Below are positions 1-63,117 of a DNA stretch of 64,000 bases, piece after piece. Where the stretch lies: positions 4,588,001 through 4,652,000 of the forward strand of contig CM075989.1 in assembly GCA_038087875.1 (NCBI GenBank), given 5' to 3'. Position numbers and translations under genes: made by a program. The notes beneath the pieces were generated by a model that was not told the DNA's origin, did no database searches, and saw nothing but the letters and a program-made list of their open reading frames with translations. The first letter of the stretch is position 1. Each line of letters opens with the position of its first letter. The DNA comes from Malacoraja senta (taxonomy: Eukaryota).

Positions 1-3000
1 CGCACAGCTAGGGGAGGGCGTTTATTTTTGTGGGGGTGGGAAAGAGGATCGAAATGGGAGGGGGGTGGGGGTGTTGTTATGCGGGGAAATGCTAACCCCA
101 GTCAGTCCATATCATGTGAGAAAATGTTCATTCGTCAACATGGTGTCCGTCACAACAGTCTGAAGAAGGGTCTCGACCCATACTTTCTCTCCAGAGATGC
201 TGCCTGTCCAGCTGAGTTACTCCAGCATTTTGTGTCTATCTTCGGTTTAAACCAGCATCTGCATTTCCTTGCTACACAAGAACATGGCGACTGTTTTACA
301 GTCCCGTCTGTGTCGACGTAAATGATGCAATGGATCCCGAGATATAAAGCACGTTGAGCTTACTGACTCTTTGATCCGACTTTCAAAACAAGCTCGATCA
401 TGCCCCACCCATACAGCAGCCGTACCCAGGGGTTGGTTCCTCCATTGGGATCATCAGCTAATTGCAAGCTTCCAGGTGCTTCCAAAATTAACTGGATTTG
501 TGCACGTTTCAACATTCTTTTTCTTAACAGGAAAATCAAAGAGATGATTACCCTGTCCTAATACAACGAAGAAATGATTCTATATAGTTTTTTTAATAAA
601 GTCATTATCTATAATTTAGTTCTGTAATTTCACAGATGGTGGAGTGACACTGATTTAAGATGCTTACTTTAAACCAATTTCACCTACATTAATCAATTTT
701 GTTTTTCACCAAGATGTTCTTAAAAATAACAGGGGATGTTTTTAAATAATTTTCTAAAGAGCACATCTTAAAATTGCCCCAGTTCATGACAGGTTAAACG
801 TGAGTGGATTTATAAATGGATCAGGGTGGGGTGGTGAAAAGGTTCTCGCGGTTAAATTGGACGCAAATTTGGACATACTTTCTACCAGAGTCGCTGTTTG
901 CGCTCAAAAAGTATATTTTACATTGGAGAATTGAACTATCGGCCATATTAACAGCCAACATAAATTGGGAGCTTGTTATAAGCCACGCCTGACTACCCAT
1001 AGCTATTTACGAAGGAAGGAACTGCAGATGCTGGTTTACACCGTAGACACAAAATGTTGGAGTAACTTAGCGGGACAAGCATTATCACTGGAGAAAAGGA
1101 ATATTGTTTCAATTTATTAGTTCAATTTTTTTTTACAAGGATAAAATCACTAGGGGCAATTATACAAACAGAAACGCACGCACCTCATCCCATACATATT
1201 TACTACTATATCATTTTTTTGGGCGACTGATTAAGCATCACAAGACAATTCCTTCAATCCAGAGATACTGCCTATCCCGCTGAGTTACTCCAGAGTCTAT
1301 CTTCGGCCATACCAATTTATAGCAGATTAAAAGTTAGCATCAGTATCTAAAAAAATCTCAAAGCATACTCAATTCATGTCATGTATCTCAATTCATATTT
1401 AAAATGAACGTCTATGGAGGTTGTTCCGAAATTCATCCACGCCAATCGGAGATCGAAAAATACAAATAGGAACTTCTCTTCCATTAGACATTGCTTTGGC
1501 CCGAATATCATGTCCTTTTCTGTGTCTTTTGGTGCGAATGCATGGTCTGACCATTTCCAAATCAGCCCATCATACACACAAATCTTTGTTCGCTCGTCTG
1601 TACAATCGATGCATCTCATCCGACGGTGGAAAATAAAAATTGAGGAGAAGTAACTCGTGACAATAGTAATAAAGTACAAAGTGACTGAAAGTCGAGGTTC
1701 TTCCCTAACGAAGTTCCATGGCCAAAAATCAATATTACCGGCCATATGCTTCAAGTCTTCATCAAATTATCTCTGACCAATGGACCTAAAAGGCAAAGTC
1801 TGGTAATCCATTCCAACTTTCACCCAGATGTCATGTCTTCCATCTTATCTCCAAGACTCAGGCCCTTGCAACGTTCGTGTCGTGGTGTTATTGGGGTTCC
1901 CTCTGCGATTAGAGGCAAGCCCTCCGTGATAAGGTCACTCTTCAGTTGACTCTCCCATGCCAAATCTGGAAAATAACACATGAAAGACAATTTTAAAAAT
2001 CGCATTAATTACAAGTTTAATAGCAAAGGACTTGGGCATTTTTGATATTAACAATCCGCATAAAGACGTGTGTTAACAATCTTGGCACAACTGGATGGAC
2101 ACAAAATGCGGGCGTAACTCGGCGGGACAGGCAGCATTTCTGGATTGAAGGAATGGGTGGTCACGATTTCGTTTTCAGAGCACATTTGAACGTAACATTA
2201 GGTCAACCATAGCAGTATTATGACCTGTGGAATAATTTCCTATATATTTTTACATCCAGGTATCAACACAAACTGGACATTTTCTAAGAGACAAAATGAA
2301 CTGCTGATGCTGGAACCTTGATCAAAATACGTAGTGCTGGATGGATTCGGCGGCCAGGCAGCATCTATGGATGGGGTGGAGAGGCGACGTTTCGTGTCGG
2401 GACCCTTTCTCAGTCTGCTCATTGCCTGACCCGCGGAGTTATCCTGTCACTTTGTGTGTTTCTGGACATATCTGAGTTCGTATAATGAAACTGAAAACAC
2501 AATTTTAAAGGGTCTAAAGTCTAAAGGTGGTAAAGTGTAAACAATCCGAATCATTCGTTATTACTTTCGGAAGGGGATTGATGGAAGATGGACGTTGTAA
2601 GCTTGGATAGACACAACACGCTGGAGTAACTAAGCGGGGCAGGCAGCATCTCTGGGGAGAAGAAATGGTTGAGATGGAAACGATTGCACAAGAAGTTCCT
2701 CCAGCACTTTGTTATGCAGTAAATACGACCAGAAAACTAAACTGTGGGGTTAGCGTTCGCGTTTCATTCTCCAAACTGCGGCACAGATACAATATTTTCT
2801 TTTTAAAAGAAAACTTCAATTGCATGATTTTATTAGGAGATCGAAAAGGGAAAAGACAACGATATCAAGGAATCGAGTGAACAGGAAGACGAAGCAAGCG
2901 ATCCCAATCACGAATGACGCCTATAGAATTGCACCAATATAGAACCAGCGTGCCATTCTGATGGTTGGTACTTAATTGGAACCTGAGGGATAACTGTTTC

Positions 3001-4813
3001 ACACAAATGGTGATGGGTGTATGGAACGAGCTGCCTGAGGAGGTGGTTGAGGCAGGTGCTATCGCAACGTTTAAGAAACATTTAGACAGCTACATGGATA
3101 GACGCAAAAATCTGCAGTAACTTCCGTGGGTCAGATAGCATCCCTGGAGAGAAGGAATAGGTGACGTTTCGGGTCGAACCCCGTCTTTTAGAGAGATAGT
3201 GAGTCAAACGCAAGCAGGCGAGACTAGTGTAGATGGGACATGTTGGTCAGTGTGGGCAAGTTGGGCCGAAGAGGCTCTATGACTCTATAACTTCTGAGAC
3301 CAGTACCCGATTTTAACCCGTCTTTACATATTTATCTATGTATGTCTGACCAAAGTCTTCCTCAAAGACACTGTATTCTGCAAATTGACCAAACAAACTG
3401 TGCAATCAGACCGTGGAGGACGCAGGCAATCTGTTCTTAATTGATCATTTAAACTGTCTTACTCTGGTTGCGCAGATCCATTCCGGAGCTACAGTCTGAA
3501 GAAGGGTCCCGACCCTAAACATCACCCATCCCTTTTCTCCAGACTGACCCGCTGAGTTACTCCAGCATTTTACTCCAGTGCTATCCTACTCCAGTATAAG
3601 CACCGCTTAAAGATGGCCAGCTCATACATGCAGGTGTACGACATTGGGTAAATTTGGGTCGGGTAAATCGACTAGTATCTCTCAGTGGACGACAACATGA
3701 GCTGTCTTTCGATCGATATGAAGTCTCATTTACACCTGCACTGGCTTCATATCTTTACTACGAATTAACAACCCGGCCGGTCTGAAGAAGGGTCTCCACC
3801 CGAAACGTCACCTATTCCTTCTCTCCAGAGATGCTGCCTGACCCGCTAAATTACTCCAGCTTTTGTGTCTATCTTCGGTTTAAACCAATATCTGCAGATG
3901 CTTCCTACACCGTAGCGGTGATGTGATTTCTCCTTTGGTGCAAATGGAGATTGATTTTCCATTGAACAGATTGACTCACAACTGTCAATACACGTTAACT
4001 GCCCACTAGGATTTATCCTTGCGGGGGGAGCTGTGAGCTAATTAAAGATCTCGTCTTGCGGGTTAATTAAGTCTTTATCCCCGAGTCCAGAATGTAACCT
4101 GCTGGATCGTTCTCCGCTGCTTTACCAATGAATCTATTCATAGGGTGAATACTTTACAACAATGCAAATATAGGTCACATGCTGGAGATATTCAGAGTCC
4201 AAGTAGTAGTGCGCGTCATTATGGTTTGTTTTTGCGCTTGATCCATGAATATATATTGCAGTCATCTCCACTTTCCGTAATCCGTTTAATATTCCCACAC
4301 TACAAACAGCTAACAATGGCCTGTTTCCTTTATCATCGTTACTTTTTTTTGCATATCTTACATTCATTGTTCTTTATCTCTTCACATCACTGTCTATATC
4401 TCTGGTTTCCCTTATCCTTAACCAGTCTGAAGAAGGGTCTTGACCAGAATCGTCACCCATTCCTTATCTCCAGAGAAGCTGCCTGTCCGCTGAATTACTC
4501 CAGCCTTTTGTGTCTATCTCCAGTAGTTCAGGACTGCTCACCAGTTGTAGTTAGGATGGTTCAGAAGAGCATCCTATTTATCCTATCTTTGCATCTTTCT
4601 CTCAAAATTCAACGCGCTCCAAGTTCCACATCTCCCTATCCTGTCCTCCAGTTTCTCCAAACTAAACTTTTCCAAATAATTAGCCGCACTGAAGACCACA
4701 ATATTTTGTTGTTGTTAGATTTGCATCAGATCCCATTTCGAAGAAACCTTCAAAGTCTAATTATTTTATTTTAGCTCCATTGGACATGTCTTGCACCAAG
4801 GTCTTGAGCCCAA

Positions 4814-16695: not shown

Positions 16696-17383
16696 ATGTC
16701 AAGTTTCTCAGAATATTCAAGCTTTCCAAAAGGAACAGAGAGAATCGCCCTGATCATTAATACTTCTTTGTTCAAATACAAGCAGGCAGCCATGACTTTT
16801 ATCAGTCTGAGATACTGGGAAGATTGAGGGAACATTATTGCCCAAAAAATATTCACCACTCCACTCAAACAAAAAAGGTGAAACTTCAAAAAGATAATTG
16901 CCAAAATGTGAATGGACTTTTTATGGACAAAATATGCAGAATTGCCACAGTACAGTTCCTGTGTCCCACAGTTTCAAGTGCAGTAGACAACAGTAATTTG
17001 GTTGGTGGGTATATGGAACGGTAGTTGAGGGAGGTACAATGCATTTAAAAGACATTTGGACAGGTACATGGATGGGAAAGGTTTAGAGGGATATGGGCCA
17101 AAAGTAGGCTTATGGAACTAGTGTAGATGCGGCATCTTGGTCAGTATGGACGAGTTGGGCCGAAGGACCCATTTCTGTGCTGTTTGAATCTATGAGAAAA
17201 ATAGCCAAAAAATCTCAAGGAAGATACTGTATCAAGTAAATTAAACTTCCAACTGCAGAAGATACATGGCAAAAGACGGGTCTCGTTCATAGATGCTGCC
17301 TCACCCGCTGAGTTTCTCCAGCATTTTTGTCTACCTAAGATACATGGCAACATGGGTTGTTAGCCAAACATCTAAAAGTTGAG

Positions 17384-17600
17384 ATAGAAACAAAAAGCTG
17401 CAGTAACTCAACGGAGAAAAGGAATGGGTGACGTTTCGGGTCGAGACCCTTCTTCAGTACTGTCTGAAGTCTGAAGAAAGGTCTCGACCCGAAACGTCAC
17501 CTATTCCTTTTCTCCAATAGATGTTGTCTGACCTGCTGAGTTACTCCAGCTTTTTGTGTCTATCTTCGGTTTAAACCAGCATCTGCAGTTCCTTCCTGCG
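17384..17600. mobile_element. head-to-head Penelope-derived pair
   Basis: Minus copy then plus copy joined at cttcag..ctgaag; diverged 15-bp TSD (17369-17383 / 17601-17615). Confidence 0.82.
17430..17457 (-). ncRNA. minimal hammerhead ribozyme-like core (Penelope type), representative copy
   Basis: CUGAAGA-A-GGGU(CUCG)ACCC-GAAA-CGUC; identical copy at 62844-62871 (-), variants at 21343-21370 (+) and 54165-54192 (-). Confidence 0.6.
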
Positions 17601-18357
17601 CATCTAAATGCTGAGGTTGGAAAAATTCAACAATCTGAATCCATTTTTCAGTTCAAGGTAACTGGGTTCTGAAGCCATGGTGTATAAATCACCATCAAGG
17701 CACGGATCAGCAACTACAGTCGGACAAGTACAATGGAATCAGCACTGTTGGCAAGAAGGTACAGTACAGAACAGGATAATCCTGTGGATCGAGATCCATA
17801 CAGAATGTGCTTTCACAGCACTCTGACAAGCCTAAATCTTGAACTGGTTCAGTCACACAACAGGCAGTGTTGAGCTATCAGCCACGGTCTTTCATTTTAA
17901 AGCTGAGGAGGAAAGATTTGGAATAATCCATTTGCACCCGCCTTGTACAAATCTTCAGATCATCAACTCTGAATGCATGATCTAGAGGGTGGAGATTCAC
18001 AAACTGCAAGCAGACATCACTGTTATTCCATGTAAAGTCATCTTCCCTCTCACACAATCCAAGCTAATTTATGTTTATTGCGGCAATGTAAATCATCACA
18101 TTGCTACATTTTTTTACACATGATGCATTTCCATATGCGCAGATCGTCACGGTGGCACAGCGGCAGAATTGCTGCCTTACAGCGACGGAGACCTGGGTTC
18201 GGATCCTGACTACAGGTGCTGTCTGTATGGAGTTTGTGCGTTCTATCTGTGACCTGTGTTGGTTTTCTCCGAGATCTTCGGTTTCCTCCCACACTCCAAA
18301 GACGTACAGGTTTGTAGGTTAATTGTAAATTGTCCCTAGTGGGTGTAGGTAGTGTTA

Positions 18358-21094: not shown

Positions 21095-22210
21095 TTCAAC
21101 ACCATAATTTCAAAATAAACTAATCTCTAAACTTCTAGACCTTGGACTTGGAGCCATCTATAACTGACTGCTGGACTTCCTGACCAGTAGACCTCAGTAG
21201 ATCAGAATTGGTCCGAACATCTCCTCCACCATGACCCTCACTACTGGTGCACCTCAGGTTTGTATGCTCAGTCTCTTGCTCTACTTCCAGTACACACATG
21301 ACCATGTGGCCAAGCACAACACCAGCCCTGATGTTCTTGAGTCTGAAGAAGGGTCACGACCCGAAACGTCACCAATTCCTTCTCTCCAGAGACGCTGCCT
21401 GTCCGGCTGAGTTACTCCAGCTTTTTGTGTCTACCTTTGGTTTAATCCAGCATCTGCAGTTCCTTCCTACACCAACCCTTACGTTCACTGTTGATACCAC
21501 CGTTGTTGGCCGGTTCTTCAACAACAATAAGATAAAGTCCAGGAAAGAGATCGAGAAACATTTTGTCATGGTATCAGGGCAATAACCTAACCCTTAACAT
21601 CAGCAAGACAAAAGAGTTAGTTGTTAACCGAAGGAAGTGAGGGGCTGAACACTTCTCCATCCTCATCAACGGAGCTGCTGTAGAGATGGTCGACAACTTC
21701 AAGTTCTTAAGCATCCATATCAGCAGCAACCATCACCTTCCCTGCTTCTTTCACACTGATGCAGTGATTTAAGAAAGTTTATCGGCTGATTTACTTTCTT
21801 AGGTGTAGGAAGGAACTGCAGATGCTGGTTTACACCGTAGACACAAAATGCTGGAGTAACTCAGCGGTCAGGCAGCAGCGTCTCTGGAGAAAATGAATAG
21901 ATTACATTTCGGGTCGACACCCTTCTTCAGACTTCTTTTCTTAGGTGTCTGAGAAGATTTGGCATGTCCACAGGGGCTATCTTGAACTTCTACAGATGCC
22001 CTTTAGAAATTATTCTGACAGGATCCAGCTCAGTCTGGTACAGGAACTGGACCGTGTCACTTCCTTCCACCCAGTCCATCAGGAAGGCAGGAAGTATGGT
22101 CATGGGTGCCTCGTACGCTGGCCATTTCCTTGTCTCTCTTCTACCTTCTGGAAGAACACACAGGAGATTGAAACCACAGACCCCCAGACTAAAGAACAGC
22201 TTCTTCCCCA
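21095..22210 (+). mobile_element. old Rex1/Babar LINE, interrupted by two Penelope-derived elements
   Basis: TLTTGAPQVCMLSLLLYFQYTHD, DTTVVG, NFYRCPLEIILT, LPSGR..RLKNSFFP remnants. Confidence 0.75.
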
Positions 22211-23254
22211 CTGCTCTCACACTACTGCGCTAAAGTTCTCTTTCACACCCTCTTCCTCTTTCCCTAGTCATAATCATCTCACCTTAATCCGTTATTCCAT
22301 TATTGTACTATAATCTTTTTTTCCACAGATTTTTCCCTACGAACTTACACCATTCTGCAGTTTTGCACTCAATGATTCCATTATACTTTATTGTCACACG
22401 TAACTAAATACAGTACATTGCTTTGTTTTGCATACAACCCGGTAAAATCATACAGCAGACCTCACCTCGGCTGCACACAAAATTGCAAAAGTTACTCATC
22501 ATTATATTTATTGTTTTATTTACCATTACTGTATGTATACTATTTACTCTGTGAGCTTCATGTAAGTAAGGAATTTCATTACACCCTGGTGTATATGCCA
22601 ATCAAACTAACATATCCTAATATATGACACCATTCAGTCACTGCGACCCCGGAACTAGCTTCTAGAGTGCAGGCTATGACCAACATACGGGCGACACGGT
22701 GGCGCAGCGGTAGAGTTGCTGCCCTACAGCGCCAGAGACCTGAGTTCAATCCTGACTACGGGTGATACTATGGAAGGGCGAGTATTCCACCTACATACAC
22801 CATCTCATTGCAATTTCCCCATTTAAATCTTCCCAACTGTGCCTTAAATCCGTCAAAGGAGTTTTTGGAACTGTTCACTTTTAAAAAGAAGAAACAACCA
22901 TCGAGATTAGGAAATCCTCACCTTCACCACTTTGGCTGATCAGGCCTCTGCTCAAAAATAGTGGCTCACCAATGCTGCTTTCAAATATCACATAAAGATG
23001 ATCAGACACACAGCATGTATAAAATGAGTTGATGGATGTCAATCAATAGACTAACCAAGCAACTGTGCCACAAAGCTGAAATCAAATGGGAAGCATGGGA
23101 AAAGATATTCCTTTGTGGTTTCCTCCCTCTTTACTCCGATAACTTCCTCTGATATTACAGTGCTCCAAGATCTCCAATTTTGACCCAATTCTCTCAAACA
23201 AATATGGACTGTAATTTAGAATGCAGCTCAAATCTTCATCAGATCTCCTGGTTA

Positions 23255-23765
23255 TAAAACACTTTAACTCCCCTTCCCATTCCCATACTGATCTTTCTAT
23301 CCTAGGCCTCCTCCACTGACAGAGTGAGGCCACATGTAAACTGGAGGAACAGCACCTCAAATATCGCTTGGGCACCTTTCAACCCAGCGATAAGAGAAGT
23401 GATTTCTCAAACTTCTACTAACCCTTGCATCCCCCCTCTCTCACTCTCTCTCCCTCCCTAGTTGTTGTACTAGTTTTACTGTCGTCCTGCTGAGTTTCAC
23501 TGTTTGTATAACTCATTATCACCTTCCCCACAGCCAACAATGGACCATTGTGGGCTCCACCTTTCCTTGATCATCATTGCTGGCTTTGATCTGTCTTTTT
23601 GCATATCTCTCAGTAATTTGTTCTATTTACCTTTACATATCTCTCGGTCCGCTCTCCCCTGACTCTCAGTCTGAAGAAGGGTCTTGACCCGAAACATCAT
23701 CTATTCCTTTCCTCCAGATATGCTGCCTGACCCGCTGAGCTACTCCAGCTTTTTATGTCTATCCT
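23255..23765 (+). mobile_element. Penelope-like element: GIY-YIG C-terminus plus 3' pLTR with hammerhead-like core
   Basis: HFNSPSHSHTDLSILGLLH*QSEATCKLEEQHLKYRLGTFQP..DFSNFY*, followed directly by the abundant short repeat. Confidence 0.85.
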
Positions 23766-25039
23766 CTATCAATAAACTTTGTCGACAGGTGCTGCTGTTA
23801 TCTCTATGTCGCACATTGCATTTCAAATCCTAACCTCTCATTTTACATTTTATTTACCGATGACCCCAGCATCTCCTGCTTTTCAACATTACCATGCTCC
23901 CTCATTCCATTACGGCACGGTGGCGCAGCGGTAGAGTTGCTGTCTTCCAGTGAATGCAGTGCCGGAGACCCGGGTTCGATCCCGACTAAGGGTGCTGTCT
24001 GTACAAAGTTTGTACGTTCTCCCCGTGACCTGCGTGGGTTTTCTCCGAGATCATCGGTTTCCTTCCACACTCCAAAGACCTACAGGTATGTAGGTTAATT
24101 GGCTTGGTAAATGTAAAAATCATCCCTATTGCGTACAGGATAGTGTTACTGTGCGGGGATCGCTGGACGGCGCCGACCCGGTGGGCCAAAAGGGCCTGTT
24201 TCTGCGCTGTATCTCTGAATCCTTTTCATGAATGTCTTCTGTGTCCTCTACAAAACCTTCACAGCCATTTCTTAACAATTGTCCCGTGTTGCCTCGAGTC
24301 ATCTTGCCAATGAAGTAGGTTTGGCATGTGATCCTGGCATTTCTACTCCACTTATCTACAGTATTTGTAACACATGCTTCATCCACTGTTTTGTTAGGCT
24401 GACCCACCATCTTCACAGAATTATTTACATATACCAGAGGGCTCTCACTCTTATAAATTCATACTTCTAATCGCAGTCCCAGGTAATTGTAAATGTCACA
24501 CAGGGATGGGAATAAATTCTCCAAGTGCAAATATAATTGGTCACAACAGATAGAGAGTGAGAGAAGCATAAATTCAATCTGAATTCTGATTAAGTGTCCC
24601 ATTCAAAATATTACGTCATATTATCTCTTTCAGATGTTGGTTGATATGCTGCATAATTCCAGCATCCTCCTGAGTTAAAGAGCTAATACCAACCACATTA
24701 GTCAAGAGCAGAGAGAGAATATCTACTAGTATCGCATTGGTTCAGTAGATATCATGCAGGAAGAAAATTGAGTAGAGGATAACTTCCATTTATATAGTTT
24801 AGTTCAGAGATACAGCGCGGAAACAGGCCCTTTGGCCCACTGAGTCCCCGCACATTAACGCTACCCTACACACTCTAGGGACAATTTTACATTTATACCA
24901 AGACAGTTAACCTATAAACCTGTACGTCTTTGGAGTGTGGGAGGAAACCAAAGATCTCGGAGAAAACTCGGGGTGAACGTAGAAACTCCGTACAGACAGC
25001 ATCTGTAGTCGGGATCGAACCCGGGTTTGCAGAGTCTCT

Positions 25040-25705: not shown

Positions 25706-28700
25706 TGATGAAATTAGCTTAATCAGAAAATTCAGCAATTTTGGAACTGCTGTGATTCCCCTTTTTAATTGCTTTGCACCAAGAAGCATCAATACAAATT
25801 TGTCCATGACAGATTAATTCAGCAATATGACTCAAGGTAGGGAAACAAAACTTCTGGTAGAGTTGCTGTCTCACAGAGCCAGAGACCCAGGTTTGATCCT
25901 GAACTCAGGTGCTGTCCGTGTGGAGTTTGCACTTTATCCCGACGAACCGCAAAGGATACCTCCCACATCCCAAAGATGCGCGGGATTGTACGTTAATAGG
26001 CCTTCTGCAAATTGCTGCCAGTTGGAGGGAGTGGATGAGAAACTGGGAACAAGTGTGAACAGGTGATCGGTGGTTGGCGTAGACTCGATGGGCCAAAGAG
26101 CCTGTTTCCATGCTGTATCTCTAAACTAAACTAAATCAGTACCAGGGTTTCATGAATGCCTTTGTTTTCTAAATAGATGTATCTATTCTAAATAGTTTTT
26201 CAATTGCCTTTCTCATGCAGTCTGACATAAATTTGCTATAGAAAGTAGAAAGTTTTGCATTAGGAAAGCAACTGCTATTTGTAAAGGTGACAAATTAAAG
26301 GAAACAATTCCATTGGCCACTAACAGCCGCAAAAGGGTCCCAACCTGAAACTTTGCCTAACCAGGTTGTCCAGAGAGGCTGCCTGACCTGCCGAGTTACT
26401 CCAGCACTCTGTGTCCTTTTTGGTAAACCAGCATCAGCAGTTGCTTGTGTCTGGAAGCAGTTCTTCTTGAGAAATCATCCATCACTCATTACAGGTTTAT
26501 TTTTTTAAATATCTGCGTGCAGACTGTGAAAAGAATTGCTTGAGATATCAACTCCTCACTCACATATAGGAGGCCAAATTTGTCCCTGGAAAAGACATGA
26601 GACCATATCACCATCATTTGGATGAAGCCACATGTAATCTACTTAGAGGCGTTCGCAAAAGTGAAAACCACCATTACATTACGGAAGCTACTTGACCATA
26701 AAGTCAGTCCTTCTCCAAGTGACAAGTGAAATATTGTGTAGAAACAAAGAACTGCAGACAAAATGTGGGAAGGAACTGCAGATGCTGGTTTACACCAAAG
26801 ATAGACACAAATTGCTGGAGTAACTCAGCGGATAGGCAGCATCTCTGGAGAGAAGGAATGGGTGGCCTTTCGGCTCACATTTCCCTCTCCCCTGACTCTC
26901 AGTCTGACGAAGGGTCTCGACCCAAAATGTCATCTATTCCTCCTATCCGGAGATTCTGCCTTTCCCGCTGAGTTACTTCAGCAATTTGTTTCTATCCAAG
27001 AACTGCAGATGCTGGTTTAAATCAAAGATAGACACAATGTGCTGGAGTAACTCAGCGGGTCAGGCAGCACATCTGGAGAACAAGGATGGACGACATGATT
27101 TCAGTTCGGGACCCTTCTTCAGATACTTTGTGTCTATCTTTGGTATAAACCAGCATCTGCAGTTCTTTGTTTCCACATTCTGTCTGCTCCACTGCTAAAT
27201 CTCCTCAAGGTATACCTACTATGAAGAAGTTCTCCTCTCTCTGACAGTTCTCCAACACCCTCCCTCACTGCTCCCCTTCTGTGATTCCTGCCAACTGGAA
27301 GAAGGATCCCAACCCAAAACGTCACCCATTCTTTTTCTCCGCAGATGCTGCCTGACCCTCTGAGTTACTCCAGCACTTTGTGTGTATGAAAAGTGGAACA
27401 TAATTATTAACAGTCAATTAAATTGGAACAGTTAACGATGCTTGCTCTAAGGACATTGCAAAGATAAAGTCTTTTTCTCCTCACATGTAACTCAGACAGG
27501 TAATTTTACTTTTATCCCTTTGTTCCCCATCCGCAAAATGCCTGAAACGGGGTACTGATTGTGGATGGTCCGCCATGAACACATTGAATGATGGTGCTGG
27601 CTCGAAGGGCCGAATGGCCTACTCCTGCATCTATTGTCTATTGTCTATTGAAACCATAAATAATGAGATGGTGATGGTGGTTGGTTGGAAAGGTGGGAGA
27701 AGCGATTAATAATCAGAATAGATTTCTGGTTAAGTTTATCTCCTTAGAATGCAAGGACATTTTTGGCTATCCATCAGCTTGCCCTTGGTCCCTCTCCGCA
27801 ACAATGCGTTTTTGTCAATTGTTAATCTAGTTCAATTCCAGCTCAATGCAAGCTATGCTGCTAATGCCAATACGTGTCTTTGATTTCCAGCAGTGGGACT
27901 TCAAAGAGATACAATCACACTCTCCCAACCACCGCCCACCCCTCCCCACAAACTGTTTGCACTAATCCATCCACCTCATTTACTGAGCATCCGTCTGCAC
28001 AACAACTATTATAAAAATTGAAGGATAAAAGCTTGGTCCCGTATTAAGAGACTGGAACTTTACATTCCCACAAAGGCACTGTATATGTAACGTACTTGGA
28101 TAGGTGTGGGTGGATAAATTACTGAAACCAAATCTGTACCCTTTATTTAACCTTTTTGAGCTAACACTACCAACACGCTTAAGGTGTATTAGACAGATAG
28201 ATATTTAACGTTGCACAGCAGAAATTCTCTATAATTTGAACATGAAGTAGTCACGGCAACAGACCATCATATTTATAGGCAGCGTGGGATTGCAAAGAGA
28301 TTTTTAAATTAAAAATATAGATGGTAAATGTACCTCAGGTACCTTGTACAAGATTATGAAGTAATTTTTTTCCCAAATAATCTGTTCATCTATTTAAAGC
28401 AATGTATAATTCAGGAAAATTTCATACTTGCATCTCCTTTGCAACGAGCTAGTCATCATGTCCAGCTCAATTTTATGCATTCAAATACCAACGCCAGAGT
28501 CATTATATATAGATTAATTAAAGGCAGAAACCTCTTATGTAGAAATAAGGAACTGCAGATGCTGGTATCCGAACGAAGACACAGAATGCTGTACTAACTC
28601 AGCAGCTCAGACAGCATCTCAGGAGAACATGGATAGGTGATGTTTCAGGTCTGAAAAAGGATCCCGACAGAAATCGTCACCTATTCATGTTCTCCTAAGA

Positions 28701-52537: not shown

Positions 52538-52611
52538 CTCCCAGTACACCTCATCTTCAAAGCAGTTTTCGTCTGGTGGGTCCCCCCAGATGGGCAATTT
52601 TAGAATAAAAC
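52538..52611 (-). CDS. rhcg: rhcg exon 9 equivalent
   Basis: ttcaag|GT TTT...GAG|gtgagt; [24 protein letters not shown]; 74 bp; typical Rhcg/Rhbg CFEDxxYWE. Confidence 0.95.
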
Positions 52612-52876
52612 CTTGAAAAAGAAACAACATTGATCAGTTTTTAATTGTAGGCAGTGGGGTTGCGAAGAGCATTGCTGGGGCAAGCCATTCATGTCAGAAC
52701 GAAAAGTGAAATTCCTCAATTTCATTTATGTTTCACACGGTGATTTCTTTGGCTCTCTAACTTCATCTCTTCAGGTCCCTGCTCCAAAGATCGGAGAGAT
52801 TCCTTTGAATGAATTGATCCAAGCCTCCCCGTTGTAGCTTCTCAGTTACAAGGAGGCAACTGATGAAGATTGTTAA

Positions 52877-53043
52877 GGAAGATAGACAAAAATGCTGGAG
52901 AAACTCAGCGGGTGAGGCAGCATCTATGGAGCGAAGGAAATAGGCAACGTTTCGGGTCGAGACCCTTCTTCAGACTCACCCGCTGAGTTTCTCCAGCATT
53001 TTTGTCTACATTCGCTTTTTTCAGCATCTGCAGTTCTATCTTA
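52877..53043. mobile_element. inverted Penelope-derived pair with 11-bp TSD
   Basis: TSD aagattgttaa at 52866-52876 and 53044-53054. Confidence 0.82.
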
Positions 53044-53359
53044 AAGATTGTTAATGGCGTGTTCAGGAGGAGAATGTGGAGAATTACTTTCTACAGAAGA
53101 GGAAACTGCTGGAACTAGTACATCGGATCCGTGCTAAGTCCATACATTAAACCTACTTAAACCAAAGCAGCAGGCAGTAATAGAAAGAGGATAGGGTCAG
53201 TACGCTGGGAAAGATTTCAAATACCTTTACACACATTTTTTCAAAGCTTTGTACAATTTCTCGCAAGCAGAAAGTATTTTAAAGTACAATTTTAACACAA
53301 CTTTCAAAGTATTGCTGCAGAAAACACATGGAGTTTTAGTTGTAGTGAGCTGTAATAAG

Positions 53360-53383
53360 ACAGTGACACCACTAGGCGGCAGC
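53360..53383 (+). promoter_or_regulatory. CTCF-like binding motif in rhcg intron 8
   Basis: ACAGTGACA-CCACTAGGCGGCAGC matches the CTCF core consensus plus an upstream CAGT element; lies in non-repeat sequence. Confidence 0.45.
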
Positions 53384-54262
53384 CAGGGTCCACTAGTTCC
53401 ACTGTTATGTATCCTTGGATCCCCTCATTAGCACATCTTCCCCATCAACAATGGGCCATGATGGATTCCACCCGTCCTGAGGTCATCTGTTTGCAGCTCT
53501 GATTGTACTGGCTTTTTCTCGTCTCCAGGGCAGCATGGTGGCACAACAGTAGAGTTGCTGCCTCACAGCGCCAGAGACTCCAGTTCGATCCTGACCACGG
53601 GTGTTGTCTGTACGGAGTCTGTACGTTCTCCCTGTGACCTGAGTGGGTTTTCTCCTGGTGCTCCGGCTTCCTCCCACACTCCAAAGATGTACAGGTTTGT
53701 AGGCTAATTAGCTTAGTGTAATTGTAAACTGTCGCTGGTGTGTGTAGGATAGTGTTAGTGTGCAAGGATCACTGGTCGGCACAGTCTTGGTGGGCCGAAG
53801 GGCCTGTTCCCGCACTGAATCTCTAAACTAAATTCAGCTGAAGTTCCCTCACCCCCACCCCACCACTATCTTTCACTCTGAGGAAGGATTCCAACCTGGA
53901 ACATTGCCTATTCCATCATCAGAGATGCTGCCTGACCCGCTGAGTTACTCCAGTACTTTGTGCCCATCTCCACCATGCTCAATCCAAGTGCTGCTTCAAC
54001 AAGTCATTCGTATTTCTTGAAGATGCAGCATCCTTAAAAAGAGAAGCCTGGCTCGAAGGGCCGAATGGCCCACTCCTGCACCTATTGTCTATTGTCTATG
54101 GTACACAAAAATGCTGGAGAAACTCAGCGGGTGCAGCAGCATCTATGGAGCGAAGGAAATAGGCAACGTTTCGGGCCGAAACCCTTCTTCAGATGGATTC
54201 CACCCGTCCTGAGGCCATCTGTTTACAGCTCTGATTGTGTAAGGGAGTAAGGGAGATGGAGG

Positions 54263-54601
54263 TCCATTGTCCATTGTCTATTGTCTATTGTCCATTGTCT
54301 ATTCTATTGTCTATTGTCTATTGTCCATTGTCTATTGTCTATTGTCTATTGTCCATTGTCTATTATCTATTATTGTCTATTGTCCATTGTCTATTGTCTA
54401 TTGTCCATTGTCTATTGTCTATTGTCCATTGTCCATTGTCTATTGTCTATTGTCTATTGTCCATTGTCCATTGTCTATTGTCTATTGTCTATTGTCTATT
54501 GTCTATTGTCCATTGTCTATTGTCCATTGTCTATTGTCCATTGTCTATTTATTGTCTATTATCTATTATTGTCTATTGTCCATTGTCTATTGTCTATTGT
54601 C
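54263..54601 (+). repeat. (CTATTGT/CCATTGT)n heptamer array
   Basis: About 340 bp; the unit equals the CR1 3' tail repeat. Confidence 0.92.
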
Positions 54602-54946
54602 TTATCCTGGGTCGTATTCAGATCACAGATAGTTGTGAAGTCAGGTGGGTAATGAGGAATTGTCAGAATGGGGTGAGGAAATGTTTGGCCAAGCAATAGT
54701 GGGAGCCTGCAAGTTATCACCAAAATGAGTAAGGGAGATGGAGATGCTTCCACACTTTTAAAGAGAGCTTAGTTGAACATTTGCATTACTGTAATCTCCA
54801 GAGAAACAGGGCAAGAGGTTCAGACCTTAGCCTTTAGAGATACAGCGTTGAAACAGGCCCTTCGGCCCACCGAGTCCGTGCTGCTCAGCGATCACCCCTT
54901 ATACTAGGACAATCCTACACACTAACGACAATTTACAATTGTACAG

Positions 54947-55530
54947 TTGTACAGGGCCCTGGTGAGACCGCATCTGGAGTATTGTGTGCAGTTTTGGTCT
55001 CCTAATTTGAGGAAGGACATTCCTGCTATCGAAGGAGTGCAGCGTAGGTTCACCAGGTTAATTCCCGGGATGGCGGGACTGTCATATGATGAAAGACTGG
55101 AGCGACTGGGCTTGTATTCACTGGAATTTAGAAGAATGAGAGGGGATTTTATAGAAAGATATAAAATTATTAAGGGATTGGACACGCCCAGAAACTTGTT
55201 CCCGATGTTGGGGGAGTCCAGAACCAGGGGGCACAGTTTAAGAATGGGGGGTAGGCCATTTAGAACTGAGATGGGGAAACACTTTTTCACGCAGAGAGTT
55301 GTGAATTTGTGGAATTATCTGGCTCAGAAGGCAGTGGAGGCTGGTTCACTGGATGCATTCAAAAGAGAATTAGATAGAGCTCTTAGGGCTAGCGGAATCA
55401 AGGGATATGGGGAGAAGGCAGGAACGGGGTACTGACTGTGGATGATCAGCCATGATCGCATTGAATGGCAGTGCTGGCTTGAAGGGCTGAATGGCCGAAT
55501 CCTGCACCTATTGTCTATGTATCTATGTAT
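54947..55530 (+). mobile_element. CR1 LINE 3' fragment
   Basis: [18 protein letters not shown]...GYGEKAGTGY* then CR1 3'UTR and tail. Confidence 0.9.
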
Positions 55531-56137
55531 CTGTCACCTATCCATGTTCTCCAGAGATGCAGCCTGACCCACTGAGTTACTCCAGCACTTTGTGTCTTTT
55601 TTTCTCTTCCCCACTGTTCTCCTTGGACCTCACATACTCCAAGGATAAATTCCTGATCTTCCAACCTACCTTGTTGCAGCCCTGGTATTTTCTCTGTAGC
55701 CCATAATACTATATTCTGCCCTTTGGCTATTTTTCTCTTTGCACTAACACAGAAGTGGAGGCTGTTAATAGATATTTTTAAGGCCGAAATAGATAGATTC
55801 TTGAATAGTACGGGTGTCAGGGGTGATGGGGAGAAGGCAGGAGAATGGGGTTAGGAGGTAGAGATAGATCAGCCATGATTGAATGGCGGAGTAGATTTGT
55901 GGGCCAAATGGCCTAATTCTGCTCCTATCACTTATGAGCCTGTATCGGATTGTACTGGACACAAAAAGCTGGAGTAACTCAGCGGGACAGGCAGCATCTC
56001 TGGAGAGAAGGAATGGGTGACGTTTCGGGTGGAGACCCTTCTTCAGACTGATTGTACTCATGTGTGGTATGACCTGCCTGGATTGCAAGCAAAGTGTTTC
56101 ACTGCACACATGGCAATATAACCCAACACCATTAGCA

Positions 56138-56395
56138 GGTTGTTGTTGTTCGTCCTTCATAGTCGAAGAAGACTATGACTGCAGTGTTTTTGTTTGTCGG
56201 TCCGGAGGTGATGGGTGAGACCTATCCGGGCCTGGAAGGCTCGCCCGCATATGGGACACAGTTGGGTGGGTGCTGCAGTGGGAGCTGAAGTGGCTCGAGC
56301 CTTGCGTGTTTCCTCCGAGCTTCTGGGGCGCGCTTCTTCTCAGCTGCACCTGTGGTGATCTTGCTTCGCCCTGTCGGGCGGTACGGGTCCTGAAG
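56138..56395 (-). mobile_element. RTE-clade LINE 3' end
   Basis: Minus strand encodes CPICGRAFQARIGLTHHLRT (C2H2-type knuckle) then a short UTR and (CAA)n tail. Confidence 0.75.
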
Positions 56396-56548
56396 TCATG
56401 ACCCGCGCTCGACTTGGATTAAAGCGAGGGAGAGTCGCCTCAAACCGTCAGCCTCGCCCTCTCGTCCCGGCCTATCTGGATCCAGTGGCAAGACATAGTC
56501 AAGACGGCTGGCGATAGCAGGCACAGGGGAGGGACACCCTCTACTCAC

Positions 56549-56673
56549 CCACAATGATGCCTCCGGCCAGGCTGATGGCAAGTGTGACGCACAGGGATGC
56601 GGCTTGAAACCCCCCCTGCTCACTCGGGGTCCGCCCTTCAAATCTACCCTCAAAACCAAAAGCAGCGATCAGC
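56549..56673 (-). CDS. rhcg: rhcg exon 8 equivalent
   Basis: cctcag|G CTG...GTG G|gtgagt; LIAAFGFEGRFEGRTPSEQGGFQAASLCVTLAISLAGGIIV(G); 125 bp; phases match exons 7 and 9. Confidence 0.93.
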
Positions 56674-57591
56674 CTGAGGAAAGCAAGAAGATCGTCACTG
56701 GAGGCACAAGGCAGTGAGTACGACTGTTATCGTGCTGAGTACAGTCCCATCATCTAACCGCAGAGCTCATCGACACATACACCAATAACCTGACCTCCAC
56801 ACCAAGCATCTATCTATACTGAAACAGATACCAGGAGAGGCTGAACAAAGCCGAGGAGTGGAGAAAGCAGGAAGAGCAACGAAAGAGAATGAAAGTAAAA
56901 GTGAAACGCAAGAGAGGGTAACAAAGGTAACAGACCCCAATGGAGGAGAGAGAACAGAGAGTGGTCATTAATAGTTACTCAGCACAGTGGCGCAACTGGC
57001 CGAGCCACTGCCTCACAGCGCCAAACACACGGGTTCAATAGTGATCTTGGGTGCTGTCTGCATGGAGTTTGCACGTTCTCCCGATGTCCGCGTGGGTTTC
57101 CTCCGGGCGCTCTGGTTTCCTCCCACATCCCAAAGACATGCGGGTTCGTCGGTTAATTGGCCCTCTGTCAATTGCCCCTGATGTGTAGGGAGTGGATGAT
57201 GCGAGTGGGATAACATGGAACTAGTGTCAGCGGGTGATCGATGCTCGGCGTGGACTCAGTGGGATGAGGGGCCTGTTTCCATGCTGTATCTTTTAAAAAA
57301 AGTGAAATGAGAGAGAGAGAGAGGCCGAGAAATGAGGGATTGGGCAGGAAATCAGCTCAAATGCGGAGGGATGGAGTGTGCAGGAGGCCAATAAAGAGGG
57401 GGAAGTGTGAGAGAGAGGGAGTCGTTAAAGAGGAGTCAGTGTGCTGTTGATGTGTAGTTTAGTCTTGCCCAAAGTTGCCTCCACACTGCGGCAATGCTGC
57501 GTATGACTCACACCTCCGCCTCACCACCTCCCCACCTCACCACCTCCACTCACCCACCTCCCCCCCACCTCCACCACCGCCCCACACCTAC

Positions 57592-57728
57592 CCTTCCCTG
57601 CTGTAGACACCCTCGGTGGCGGCCGCTGCAGTGACGGCCCCCACGATGGCTCCGATCAACCCTGGTATGGCGTGCAGGTTGTGGATGCCACACGTGTCCT
57701 GGATGTGCAGGTGTTTCTCCAAGAGCGG
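57592..57728 (-). CDS. rhcg: rhcg exon 7 equivalent
   Basis: ctccag|CCG...GG|gtaggt; [45 protein letters not shown](G); 137 bp; DTCGxxNLH motif with the second pore His. Confidence 0.96.
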
Positions 57729-57798
57729 CTGGAGAGGGAAAGACAGAGGTCAGGAGCAAGGATGGTCCAGAGCATTGAGATACCCACCACAGTGATCA

Positions 57799-58048
57799 CT
57801 GTGTGTGTGTGTGTGTGTGTGTGCGTGTGCACGCTTGTGTGTGTGTGTTTGTGTATGTGTGTGGGTGTGAGTGTGTAGGTGTGTGTGTGTAGGTGTGTGT
57901 GTGTAGGTGTGTGTGTGTAGGTGTGTGGGTGTGGGTGTGAGTGTGAGTGTGTATGTAGCTGTGTGTGTGTAGGTGTGTGTGTAGGTATGTGTGTGTGTGC
58001 GCGTGTGTGTATGTGTGTGTGTGCATGTGTGTGCGTGTGCGCATGTGT
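57799..58048. repeat. imperfect (TG)n microsatellite
   Basis: Direct reading. Confidence 0.95.
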
Positions 58049-58067
58049 TATTTGAGTGTCTGAGGGT

Positions 58068-58720
58068 GTGTGGAGTCTTTTAAGTTCCTTGGAACCATCA
58101 TCTCCAAGGACCTGAAATGGGGGGCCACCATCGACTCCACAGTCAAAAAGGCACAACGGAGGATGTACTTCCTGCGGCAGCTGACAAAACACAATCTGCC
58201 ACAAGCAATGATGGTCCAATTCTGTATGGCCATCGTAGAGTCTGTCCTCACCTTCTCCATCATGGTCTGGTTTGGCTCAGCCACCAAGCATGACATCCGG
58301 AGGTTGCAGTGAATCGTTCGATCAGCTGAGAAGGTTATGGGCTGCAACCTTCCCCCCATTGACGAACTGTACACTGCAAGGGCCAGGAAGCGAGCGGGTA
58401 AGATCATCTCTGACCCCTCTCACCCTGGCCACAAACTCTTTGAATCACTTCCCTCTGGAAGGCGACTCCGGACTGTCAAAAACAGCTTTTTTCCACTAGT
58501 AGTAGCTCTACTCACTCAATAACCAAAAGTCTGTAGCCTCCTTGTGCTCTGGTATTTTATTTCATTCACATGTTTAAACTATAATGTTTTATTATTAATG
58601 TTTAATGTTTTATATGGTCATTCTTAATTGTTTACTGTATGTCATGTTGTTACTTGCGAGCGGAGCACCAAGGCAAATTCCTTGTATGTGTACATACTTG
58701 GCCAATAAACTTATTCATTC
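58068..58720 (+). mobile_element. Rex1/Babar LINE 3' fragment in rhcg intron 6
   Basis: ESFKFLGTIISKDLKW..VKKAQRRMYFLRQL..ESVLTFSIMVWFG; DPSHPGHKLFESLPSGRR. Confidence 0.88.
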
Positions 58721-58799
58721 AAACTTATTCATGTTTGTGTGTGTGTGGTCATATGTTCATGTGTGTGGGTGTATGTGTGTGCCTATGTCTATGTCTGCG

Positions 58800-59332
<533 letters not shown>

Positions 59333-59385
59333 CACAACCATGTATAAAACCAATCCCCGATGTGTCTCTCCTCAGGCTAACTCAC

Positions 59386-59523
59386 CGACAGGTAGAGGAA
59401 TCCCAGCGTAGAGATGGTCCCGGAGATGGCTCCGACAATCAGCGCTCCGTACGGAGTCAGCATCATCTCCCCGGCCGTGCCCATGGCTACTCCCCCGGCC
59501 AGTGTGGCGTTCTGCACGTGGAC
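59386..59523 (-). CDS. rhcg: rhcg exon 6 equivalent
   Basis: cgccag|GTC...TCG|gtgag; [46 protein letters not shown]; 138 bp; NATLAGGVA Rh/Amt signature. Confidence 0.96.
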
Positions 59524-59709
59524 CTGGCGACGGGAACAAGGAGATCACCTTCGTGCCGCTTCCAGCCCCTCCACCCCTCACCTGCCCCCATCCCCTCCCA
59601 CCGAGCCACAGCCTGCCTGGACAGTGAGAGTTGCCCAGGTCTCTGAGCCTCATCAACGTCCTATAAAGCTGCATCATGACATCCTGACTCTCATACTCAA
59701 TATATAGTA

Positions 59710-60095
59710 AACTTGGGCAGCTTACAACCAGGCAGTATAAATCTTGATTTCTCCAACTTCAAGTAACCCTTGCATCCTCTCTTTCTCTCTCTCTCTCTCT
59801 GTCCCTCCCCCACCCAAGTCGTTGTATTAGTTTCAAAGTCGTTTTGTTGAGTCTGATTGTCAGTAACTCGTTTTCACCCAGATCACAGCTAACAATGGCC
59901 CGTTTCCTTGATCAGCGTTACTTTTATGACTATATTTCATTCATTTGGTAGATATCTCTCCATATCACCATCTATATCTCTCATTTCCCTTTCCCCTGAC
60001 TCTAAGAAGGGTCTCGACCCGAAACGTCGCATATACCTTTTCTCCAGAGATGCTGCCTCACCCGCTGAGTTACTCCAGCTTTTTGTGTCTATCTT
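59710..60095 (+). mobile_element. Penelope-like element 3' end, subfamily A
   Basis: LGSLQPGSINLDFSNFK* ORF end, then pLTR. Confidence 0.8.
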
Positions 60096-61115
60096 ATACT
60101 CAATGCCCAAACCTATAAAAGCACTCTTTACCACTCTATTCACCTGTGTTGCCACATTCAGGACTATGGTCTTGGACCCTAAGATCCCTCTGTACATTAA
60201 TTGTGTTAGGGTCTTACCATTCATTGTACATTTCCCCTGACATATGACCTCCCAAAGTGTAACACCCCACACTCGCACTTCCTTGTATTTGGAGTAGGAA
60301 TCAGTTCAACTGCTGACTGTCAGCTGGGCTCTATCTTCACAATTACATTAAATGTCGCCCAAACCAAGGTTTGCACTTCCCAGCGATCTAGTCAACTATG
60401 GGGTCATATTTGAGTCTAAGGCAGGCAAAGAGCATAGAACAGTACAGCGCAGGAACAGAACCTTCAGCCCACAATATCTATGCCGAACATGATGCCAAAT
60501 TAAATTACTGCTCCATTTGCATCTGGTCCATATCCCTCCATTCTCAGCATATCCATGTGCCTATTCAAAAGCCTCTTAAATCCCATTTGCTATCATATCT
60601 GCCTCAGCCTCCAATCCTGCCGCCACTTTCCAGGCACCCATCACTTTCTGTGTAAAAAAACCTTATCCTGCACATTTCATTTAACTTTGCCCCTCTCACC
60701 TTAAATCTATGCCCTCTGGTCTTTGACATTTCCACCCTGTGATAAAGGTTCTGACTGTCTACCCTATCTATGCCTCTCATCATTTTATATACTTCTATTA
60801 GGTCTTCCCTTAATCTCTGACGTTTCAGAGAAAACAATCTAAGTCAGTTTAATCTCTCTTTATAGGTAATACCTTCTAATACAAGGAGCATTTTACTAAA
60901 ACTCTTCTGCACCTTCTCCAAAGCCTCAACATCCTTCCTGTAATGTGGCCAGAACTGCACATACTTCAATTGTGGCATAACCAAAGCTGGACCACGACTT
61001 CCTGATCTTATACGCCGTGTCCTCATCGATCCAACTTCTATATTCAATACTCTGACTGATGAAGGCCATAGTGGGAAAAGCCTTTTTGACCACCCTAACT
61101 ACTTGAGATGCCACT
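60095..61115 (-). mobile_element. degenerate CR1 LINE fragments
   Basis: VVKKAF..FISQSIEYRSW; LREDLIEVYKMMRGIDRVDSQ. Confidence 0.8.
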
Positions 61116-61146
61116 TTTAAGGAAGTGTCTTGAAAGCCTAGTCTTA

Positions 61147-61465
61147 GGTCACAGTGGCGCAGCGGTAGAGTTGCTGCCTTACAGCGAATGCAGCGCCGGA
61201 GACCCGAGTTCGTTCCCGACTACGGGTGCTGTCTGTACAGAGTTTGTACGTTCTCCCCGTGACCTGCGTGGGTTTTCTCCGAGGTCTTCGGTTTCTTCCC
61301 ACACACCAACGATGTACAGGTTTGTAGGTTAATTGGCGTGGTAAATGTAAAAATTGTTCCCAGTGGGTGTAGGATAGTGTTAATGTGTGCGGGGATCGCT
61401 GGTCGGCGCGGACCCGGTGGGCCGAAGGGCCTGTTTACGTGCTGTATCTCTAAACTAAACTAAAC
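61147..61465 (+). mobile_element. HE1-like tRNA-derived V-SINE, representative of ~25 copies (e.g. 12535, 13659, 15520, 18146, 23913, 24797-, 25112, 25855, 30523-, 36823, 39712-, 42750, 45245-, 47313-, 48034, 48698-, 50755-, 51645, 53528, 56981, 61733-)
   Basis: A box (TGGCGCAGCGG) and B box (consensus GGTTCGATCC), V-domain (tgtatggagtttg.acgttctccc..gtgggttt..cggtttcctcccaca.tccaaagac), 3' end tgggccgaagggcctgtttcc shared with CR1/HER1, (ctaaa)n tail. Confidence 0.9.
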
Positions 61466-62165
61466 AAGGGGAGGACTTCAGTCCCTTGTGCCCAATGACT
61501 GCGTCTCCAGTCCAAATGTTTCCATGTCAAGGGATCGCTCTAATTGCAGTTTGGATTAACACCAATTCCACACCTGAGATTGGAATACGTTTCTGTTCAC
61601 TTTGAAGTCAAGCCTAGATTCCTGTGGCAAATGATCCACATCTAATCATCGTTGGTGCTCTGTTCCCCCTCCCACTACCCCCACCCTTGGTGGGCAGCTG
61701 TCTCTGAGGTTACCCCCAGACTAGTAACATGTAGTTTAGTTTTGTTTAGAGACACAGCACGGAAACAGGCCCTTCATCCCCGACGCACCGACAAGCGATC
61801 CCTGCACATTAACACTATCCTACACTAGGGACAATTTTTTAAAACATTTATATCAAGCCAATTATCCTACAATCTGTACGTGTTTGGAGTGTGGGAGGAA
61901 ACCGAAGTTCTTGGAGAAAACCCACGCAGGTCACGGGGAGAACGTACATAGACAGCACCCGTAGTCAGGATCGAACCCGGGTCTCTGGCGCTGTAAGTGC
62001 TGTATTGCAGCAACTCTACCACTGCACCACCGTGCTGGTGTGTCATCGTGTGTTTAGTCCCGGGTACATTGTGGTCCAAATACTCCACGGTCTCCAGATA
62101 CCCTGCAGTCCATATACCCCACCCCCAGCTACCCCAGCCCCCGCGATCCACGTCCCCACCCCTAC

Positions 62166-62332
62166 CATGTTGATCTTCCCTTTCTTCTCCAAGAGGCTGG
62201 AGATGGCGATGGTGGTGAGGACGCTGGCGGCCAGCGAGGCATAGGTGTTGATGGCGCCCCGGTGTTGTCCGTCCCCGTGATGGGAGATGGCGGAATTGAA
62301 GCTGGGCCAGAACATCCAGAGGAAAAGGGTGC
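62166..62332 (-). CDS. rhcg: rhcg exon 5 equivalent
   Basis: ccgcag|GC ACC...ATG|gtagg; [56 protein letters not shown]; 167 bp, the usual Rh exon-5 length; SAISxHGD/AINTY is RhCG-like. Confidence 0.96.
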
Positions 62333-63117
62333 CTGCGGAGGAGAACAAAGAGCCCTGTTCTTTCTTTTTTCATTCTTTTTTGTACAATTGCTTCCAAGAA
62401 AATTATAATTAAAAAAATAAAAAATAAAATAACAAAGAGCCCTGACGCAACTGGATCCTCACCGCCGCAGTCACAGGAAACAGCAGATGCTGGAATCTGG
62501 AGCAAAAAAACCAAACTGCTGGAGGAGCTCAGTGGAAACCCACGCGGTCACAGGGAGAACGTGCTAACTCCGCACAGACAGCATCTGAGATCTGGATCGA
62601 ATCCGGGTCTCGGGCGATGTGAGGCAGTGGCTCTACCAGCTGCACCACTGTGCCGCCCTTTCTCTGAATCTCGTCCATTCATGAGAGACTGTGATACAGT
62701 GAAAAACAAAGAGTGAATTGGCCAGCAGTGGGTACAATCCACATGCCATCCCAATTCAGATCAGGGAGGCAGACCTTTCCTGGTCATAAGATAGACACAA
62801 AATGCTGGAGTAACTCAGCGGGTCAGGCAGCAAAGGAATAGGTGACGTTTCGGGTCGAGACCCTTCTTCAGATGTTTAGAGGGATGTGGGCCAAACGCAG
62901 GAGATGGGATCGGTATAAATGGGGCATCTTGGTCAGCATGGGCAAGTCGGGCCGAAGGGCCTGTTTCCATGCTGTATGACTACGGCTCTGTGAGCTATCC
63001 CAGCATCTGCAGCCTCCTGCGTCTCCACTCCATTCACCGCATTGGTTGGTGGGGACGGATGGGAAGGGGCAGTTCTTTCCCCTGAAATTCTCAGCGACTA
63101 AACGAAGAAACCCTCAC

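Follow-up and report, generated by a model that had tools for sequence, protein, structure and literature searches.

What are the short, hammerhead-bearing repeats that crowd a 64,000-nucleotide stretch of the Malacoraja senta genome (assembly GCA_038087875.1, contig CM075989.1, positions 4,588,001 to 4,652,000; the whole stretch is called the window below), and do their ribozymes cut RNA in vivo? A sequence-only reading of the window had described a non-autonomous, retrozyme-like population derived from Penelope, with a hammerhead that might be degenerate. Our results demonstrate that the repeat belongs to a Penelope-like element (PLE) that was recently active, as its pseudo-long terminal repeat (pLTR); the element has a reverse transcriptase (RT)/GIY-YIG frame, partial tandems, inverted pairs, and a tail of ~35 nt. 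The short copies, or stubs, are very probably separately inserted hammerhead-bearing terminal repeats of this element. We also lean, by a little, towards the view that arrays of 61-nt units elsewhere in the genome record in vivo self-cleavage by the minimal Penelope hammerhead, with RT copying the 3' product, jumping or circling, and repeating, while the stubs mark the uncut start.

Abundance and arrangement of the repeat

A profile of the repeat was scanned against the window and against shuffled and reversed controls, yielding 69 matches between positions 155 and 62872 (37 on the forward and 32 on the reverse strand) and none in the controls. These matches collapse to 50 loci, the number estimated earlier, with sizes of 41-408 bp rather than the 100-250 bp given then. 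The full core had been ascribed to many copies; it is spanned by only 35 of the 69 matches, seven of which are intact, and four of these also have the 2-bp stem I. All individual motifs cited by the sequence-only reading are present, at 17430-17457 and 62844-62871 (both reverse strand), 21343-21370 (forward, CACG loop), 54165-54192 (reverse, UUCG loop), and near 26904 (CUGACGA), and its recognition of a Penelope origin, a minimal type I hammerhead, a loopless ACGU stem III, and a very high copy number was correct.

Across 79 unselected 10-kb stretches of the genome (788,800 bp in total), 386 matches give an average density of 0.49 per kb, about half that of the window. Extrapolated from this sample, the genome would hold roughly 10^6 copies, which occupy ~4.7% of the sampled DNA; one exact 50-nt stretch of the repeat occurs 19,422 times in the genome. 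Arms of head-to-head pairs make up 28 of the 69 window matches and 156 of the 386 sample matches (~40%), tail-to-tail pairs numbered five among 252 matches, and same-strand cores at most 400 nt apart were encountered twice in the window and 16 times in the sample.

A Penelope-like element as the source

Searching the genome for GIY-YIG domains revealed frames that continue directly into the repeat. At 29 of 30 open reading frame (ORF) loci the motif lies downstream of the frame on the same strand, 119-189 nt after the ORF match. One of these frames, P0002, is complete at 1,224 residues; it contains a proline-rich stretch, the motifs DKG, GVAMG, and YIDD, a CX4CXXC linker at residue 1091, and a GIY-YIG domain with a CxxC before YIGET at 1131 and histidines downstream, so that the CX2-5CxxC and CCHH features are present. 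Its domain matches (RVT_1, E 7e-6; GIY-YIG, E 1.5e-3) are both below the curated cut-off, whereas the GIY-YIG score of a second frame, P0001, is above it, and 475 relatives are labelled RT and GIY-YIG. The repeat is also found upstream of the frame, with 100% identity at the 40 pLTR-to-ORF junctions scored. With position 0 defined as the C of CUGA and H17 at +27, the first ATG of the ORF lies at +163, and in one tandem of the element the cores recur every 3,996-3,999 bp.

Two 3' ends ~35 nt apart, head-to-head pairs, and target duplications of 10-17 bp support the assignment to the PLEs; an ORF with RT plus a GIY-YIG domain at its C-terminus, partial tandems, an inverted truncated copy, and a 30-40-bp tail are given as marks of the endonuclease-positive (EN+) members (PMC8557442). 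The repeat is the 3' end plus the upstream pLTR of a coding PLE. Together with the inclusion of ORF-linked copies in four of the five large sequence clusters and the scarcity of same-strand core pairs, this leaves the earlier description of a non-autonomous, retrozyme-like population unsupported.

The top of the GIY-YIG search was occupied by arrays of 759-residue frames, which were considered as the source and rejected, as they belong to another PLE family without this repeat. The frames of this second family are intact, 34% identical to P0002, and arranged in tandem among (CCCTAA)n near contig ends (C14:18.24-18.41 Mb, the start of C17, and many small contigs), and they are accompanied by a hammerhead-like motif of their own with an extra A. 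The family looks telomere-targeted although its nuclease is retained. Relatives from metagenomes (30 loci) were mostly fragments and uninformative; one had a hammerhead-like motif on the strand opposite to the match. This motif, at L384:1305 (reverse strand) on a metagenome contig with a PLE-like RT match, shows an extra A and a 7-bp stem II.

Conservation of the hammerhead motif

Consensuses of the five large clusters, which had been formed on the flank only, were compared. None of the 13 core positions (CUGANGA, GAAA, UH) differs between them, as against 15 of 63 flank positions (p=0.06). Between -2 and +29 six positions vary, all of them in ways that hammerheads tolerate: two lie in the loop, one is H17, and at the other three a change on one side leaves the pair intact. 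The stem II difference between subfamilies noted earlier (U-A versus U-G) does preserve pairing, as a one-sided wobble and not as two-sided covariation. The reported freedom of N7 was borne out, with changes in 30 of 206 cases compared with 54 of 1,029 for the other core adenines (p=1e-5, about threefold), as was the constant H at H17, seen in 35 of 35 core-spanning window copies.

An extra A follows A9 in 33 of the 35 window copies, and G10.1-C11.1 and the CG palindrome are found in all five consensuses. An extra base between 9 and 10.1, the G10.1-C11.1 pair, and palindromic 15.2-16.2 are described as traits of PLE hammerheads (PMC4209133), so the extra A, which had been taken as a possible sign of degeneration, is a known trait and not decay. 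Judged from the consensus sequences, the lineage does not look degenerate, since the core is invariant among them and N7 is freer than the other core adenines. Helix I, at 2 bp, is maintained by one-sided changes; its computed pairing probability is at most 0.04, and an extended stem I sought by folding was unsupported. After insertion, core and flank decay at little different rates at non-CpG sites (5.7% and 7.9-9.0%, respectively). In raw reads from two related organisms, the repeat was covered about equally on both strands in the two bulk libraries, and no pile-up of molecule ends was seen, a result that counts neither way because fragmented cDNA loses cleavage ends.

Ends of the stubs

Ends were read in 99 young copies, which came from the first 100 matches listed for contig C1 and were chosen only on +42..+91. 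Their 3' ends fall into two groups, 65 at +91..95 and 29 at +123..133. At the 5' side, where the ends peak at -3/-2 and not at the predicted cut, 29 end at -5..0, 3 at -30..-6, and 31 farther upstream. Target duplications of at least 8 nt flank 37 of the 71 non-inverted young copies and were also found at 7 of the 50 older window loci (2% in controls). Genome-wide, matches break 1,364 times at -2, 2,981 times at -3, and 1,924 times at -4, and continue through -4 in 11,040 cases and through -6 in 9,332.

The 5' stop was seen in 29 of 63 copies on the first pass and in only 1 of 21 on a second pass through the upstream pLTR (p=4e-4); since the stop differs between passes, it is not a fixed RT block, and an RNA 5' end fits it best. 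The sequence at -3/-2 resembles the initiator consensus, and a promoter internal to the pLTR is described for Penelope of D. virilis (PMC2377424).

In five stubs (L184, L200, L278, L283, and L246), the 5' end is preceded by a short repeat of itself, which an RT jump at an RNA end at -2 would be expected to produce. At C1:3.87-4.04 Mb (L424-L446) lies a cluster of repeats, most of them ~2.45 kb apart; every one holds one and the same stub, altered at U16.1.

Arrays restarting at the predicted cut site

In a gap search, a 3' part of the repeat was joined to a 5' part, and the restart could fall anywhere from about +17 to +34; the 72 hits obtained were reduced by hand count to 36 places. A +88|+28 junction without microhomology accounts for 34 hits at 10 of the 36 places and occurs in both the A28 and the G28 variants; another 5 places are compatible with +28, and the remaining 21 have a different restart or an ambiguous one. 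The corresponding binomial tails are 3e-9 (15 of 36 at 1 in 15) and 0.011 (10 of 36 at 1 in 8). The restart coincides with the predicted scissile bond, and the resulting 61-nt units, of which up to nine are consecutive, lack the hammerhead core altogether.

Nine places with +28 arrays were read, eight from the gap search and one from a separate search. Their flanks are all distinct, several show target duplications, and most final units stop on or close to the usual +92 or +128 points; in three, the first unit starts precisely at +28. A28 and G28 are never mixed within an array, and in one array 2 of the 4 junctions bear an additional A. A longer form, L402 (C1:27817367-27818779), consists of 11 units of 138 nt (+28..+165, from the cut site to the first ATG) and ends at +129. 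Junctions back to the -3/-2 end gave 99 hits and are varied, and 1 of the 3 tail-end junctions has its restart at +28. No +28 array lies within the window. A contig joint equal to +88|+28 was also found in run X15, which is perhaps the assembly's own sample and was not counted as independent.

Short head-to-tail arrays of 94-102 bp whose units include the CUGAAGA box were seen at C4:0.53-2.82 Mb, C636:15117-15343, C3796:409768-409904, and C824:24295-24415. They are the sole retrozyme-like arrays encountered, and they are possibly dimer-competent.

A mechanism may be proposed in which RT starts at ~+92 or ~+128, as in the anole element, and in which the -3/-2 peak reflects RNA that started in the pLTR and has its 5' end there, an identification we favour by a narrow measure. 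Uncut RNA from -3/-2 would then yield a 95- or 130-bp stub, longer tandem transcripts would yield truncated or full copies, and most stubs would be dead on arrival. That a small share of the RNA is cut after +27 and RT jumps from that end to +88 repeatedly, giving the 61-nt arrays, we hold to be rather probable. Cleavage would probably take place as a dimer or with protein help. RT might alternatively circle a covalently closed loop. Because the last units carry +89 onward, a pure 61-nt circle is less likely than either repeated jumping or template switching from a linear RNA to a circle.

Weighing of alternative explanations

Several observations weigh against cleavage in vivo, an RNA start at -3/-2, or an entirely coding source. 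Stem II has a computed probability of at most 0.03 in context, with the core pairing with downstream pyrimidines; in the young subfamily, it is outcompeted by a hairpin that spans +7..+27 (0.15 versus 0.79), and the Rfam covariance models, a check suggested by the earlier reading, gave no hammerhead match. Solo 5' ends at +27..29 are found in only 3 of the 99 young copies, and in subfamily A about 12 places with a 61-nt unit are ambiguous from GTC microhomology. A purine replaces T at +27 in 320 cases (152 at +26 and 232 at +31), many of them point changes or inversions. Full-length copies seldom start at -3, contrary to the expectation from a single start, and the addition of a G from the cap is weakly supported: G stands at -3 in 1,344 of 2,981 cases, but a simple duplication plus G was present at only 2 of 30 such loci read. 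Finally, one old cluster has no ORF-linked copy among 33, and there a non-autonomous source may have operated.

The main rival for the arrays is that the +28 restart comes from RT stalling at the edge of the hairpin, and that the hammerhead does not cut in vivo. The position of the young-subfamily hairpin, which ends at +27, speaks for this, as do published accounts in which metazoan minimal hammerheads cleave poorly in vitro and, in the anole, no RNA reads ended at the site (PMC4209133, PMC11167929). The hairpin is weak, however (-5.9 kcal/mol), and is absent in subfamily A, which still has a few homology-free +28 restarts. Stalling would also have to explain ~15 junction places despite very few solo +28 ends, while the commoner -3/-2 ends give varied junctions, and why the core is constrained with N7 free. 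We therefore regard stalling as unlikely, though it deserves to be taken seriously. Less probable still is that the -3/-2 peak reflects a splice acceptor, or a fold-back at the TCAG-T-CTGA palindrome, instead of a transcription start. The sequence does read as an acceptor (pyrimidine tract, CAG, U at -1), an intron of D. virilis ends at helix I (PMC4209133), and some inverted junctions are centred on the palindrome; yet the peak at -2/-3 would lie inside the would-be intron, no common exon precedes it, and most copies in the peak are not inverted.

The least credible of the alternatives, in our view, is an independent non-autonomous family of retrozyme or short interspersed element (SINE) type, copied from stub to stub. 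Such a family would have fixed 5' and 3' ends and target duplications of its own, both of which the stubs possess; the -3/-2 stop is specific to them, and the old cluster and the few core-containing 94-102-bp arrays point the same way. Against this, young stubs are identical, letter for letter, to ORF-linked pLTRs over the 50 nt searched, no sequence upstream of the -3/-2 ends is common to the copies, same-strand core pairs are few, and the RNA of the anole element is described as requiring sequence beyond the RT start (PMC11167929), which is absent from the stubs. We thus retain the origin of the stubs as inserted terminal repeats of the PLE, and hammerhead cleavage as the preferred source of the arrays.

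Individual copies and other features of the window

The copy at 23666 extends back into the coding part of the element. On the forward strand, a broken remnant of the C-terminal part of the PLE ORF (23191..23415, 47% identical to residues 1149-1223 of P0002) is followed by a pyrimidine-rich 3' untranslated region and pLTR (23416..23801) with the core at 23671. Long-form stubs on the same strand lie at 3778..3910, with an intact core and 2-bp stem I, and at 21339..21472, with a tail, an intact core, and a predicted cut at 21370/21371. An inverted arm at 17381..17457 (reverse strand), with an intact core and an internal deletion downstream, forms a head-to-head pair with a tailed direct arm at 17467..17602 (forward strand), and a further head-to-head pair, with CUGACGA in its forward arm, spans 26764..27009 on both strands.

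Four other stubs with intact cores lie on the reverse strand in sense to an Rh-family gene, at 52857..52977 (an arm of an inverted pair), 54077..54194 (short, UUCG subfamily), 55956..56051 (short, with a 9-bp target duplication), and 62788..62872 (with a downstream deletion). The gene, for which exon matches identify RhCG as the best match, occupies 52538..63292 on the reverse strand and continues past the window end; matches to exons fall near 63107-63292, 62127-62381, 59395-59523, 57603-57725, and 52538-52612. Several sense copies had been reported in its introns, and 5 of the 9 repeat matches in the gene region are indeed sense, which amounts to no strand bias.

Another dispersed repeat (families D12-D20), ~300 bp long and headed by a tRNA-like part, is present in about a dozen copies between 12523 and 61474; it is probably a SINE of cartilaginous fishes. 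The segment 21300-21500 has a 99% identical inverted copy at C13:4269273-4269473, which suggests a local segmental duplication. The window also has tandem repeats at 32517-33176, 54264-54612, 57758-58069, and 58809-59400, whose units measure 28 bp, 7 bp, and 14 bp or are short and rich in AC.

Significance and comparison with known systems

In the published accounts, minimal animal PLE hammerheads are weak in vitro, the only system reconstituted shows them to be dispensable for insertion, and what they do is described as unclear (PMC4209133, PMC11167929, PMC8557442). Our findings bear on whether such hammerheads cut RNA in vivo, and the genome offers a PLE whose frames are intact and whose ends are predicted exactly, along with a specific +88|+28 product that an in vitro system may or may not reproduce. 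If the proposed mechanism is true, the genome shows to the nucleotide where the RNA starts, where RT starts at both of its points, and where the ribozyme cuts; it also shows how pLTR mini-arrays, from which retrozymes might be seeded, form within one insertion event. Given its share of the sampled DNA, it matters for repeat libraries that the repeat be labelled as the ends of a PLE rather than as a SINE in its own right.

As a ribozyme family, the hammerhead of this repeat is not new. Earlier publications already cover the hammerheads of PLEs as well as truncated single motifs and solo pLTRs, and the cut-site arrays are the new part. We found no paper on Penelope hammerheads in elasmobranchs, a search that did not cover preprint supplements (which include one chondrichthyan genome), and none on template jumps or tandems at the Penelope hammerhead cleavage site.

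We compared the element with the relevant sections of the published descriptions. The minimal type I hammerheads of PLEs (Cervera and de la Pena 2014, PMC4209133) share the core, the extra base, G10.1-C11.1, and the palindromic 15.2-16.2, and they too are mostly single motifs of truncated copies, with some opposite-strand pairs. Here, in contrast, helix II has 4 bp and helix I 2 bp, the repeat reaches ~10^6 copies rather than thousands (the core is intact in about one copy of 10), and two things missing from the sections compared are described, namely where the copies end and arrays that start at the cut site. EN+ PLEs of the Neptune/Nematis type (Craig et al. 2021, PMC8557442) have the same ORF layout, CX2-5CxxC linker, and C-terminal GIY-YIG domain, together with partial tandems, an adjacent inverted truncated copy, and a 30-40-bp tail; the frame found here is longer, at 1,224 residues with the proline-rich stretch, and is likened to Neptune/Nematis by its motifs.

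Metazoan non-LTR retrozymes (PMC7229834, bioRxiv 10.64898/2026.07.22.740005) are likewise pLTR-derived, non-coding, and hammerhead-related, an origin as pLTR derivatives having been proposed for them (bioRxiv 10.64898/2026.07.22.740005). Short tandem arrays exist in the genome studied here too, but the window copies are monomers or inverted pairs and do not form tandems whose every unit holds a hammerhead. In Anolis, the Poseidon element PAc (Frangieh et al. 2024, PMC11167929) shows two internal RT starts that define the tail, as proposed here, with the hammerhead upstream of them, and uncut RNA is the main template there and probably here. Its ORF starts inside the hammerhead, unlike the ORF described here, and no PAc RNA is described in that account as ending at the cut, which is the very point at which the genomic arrays of this element restart.

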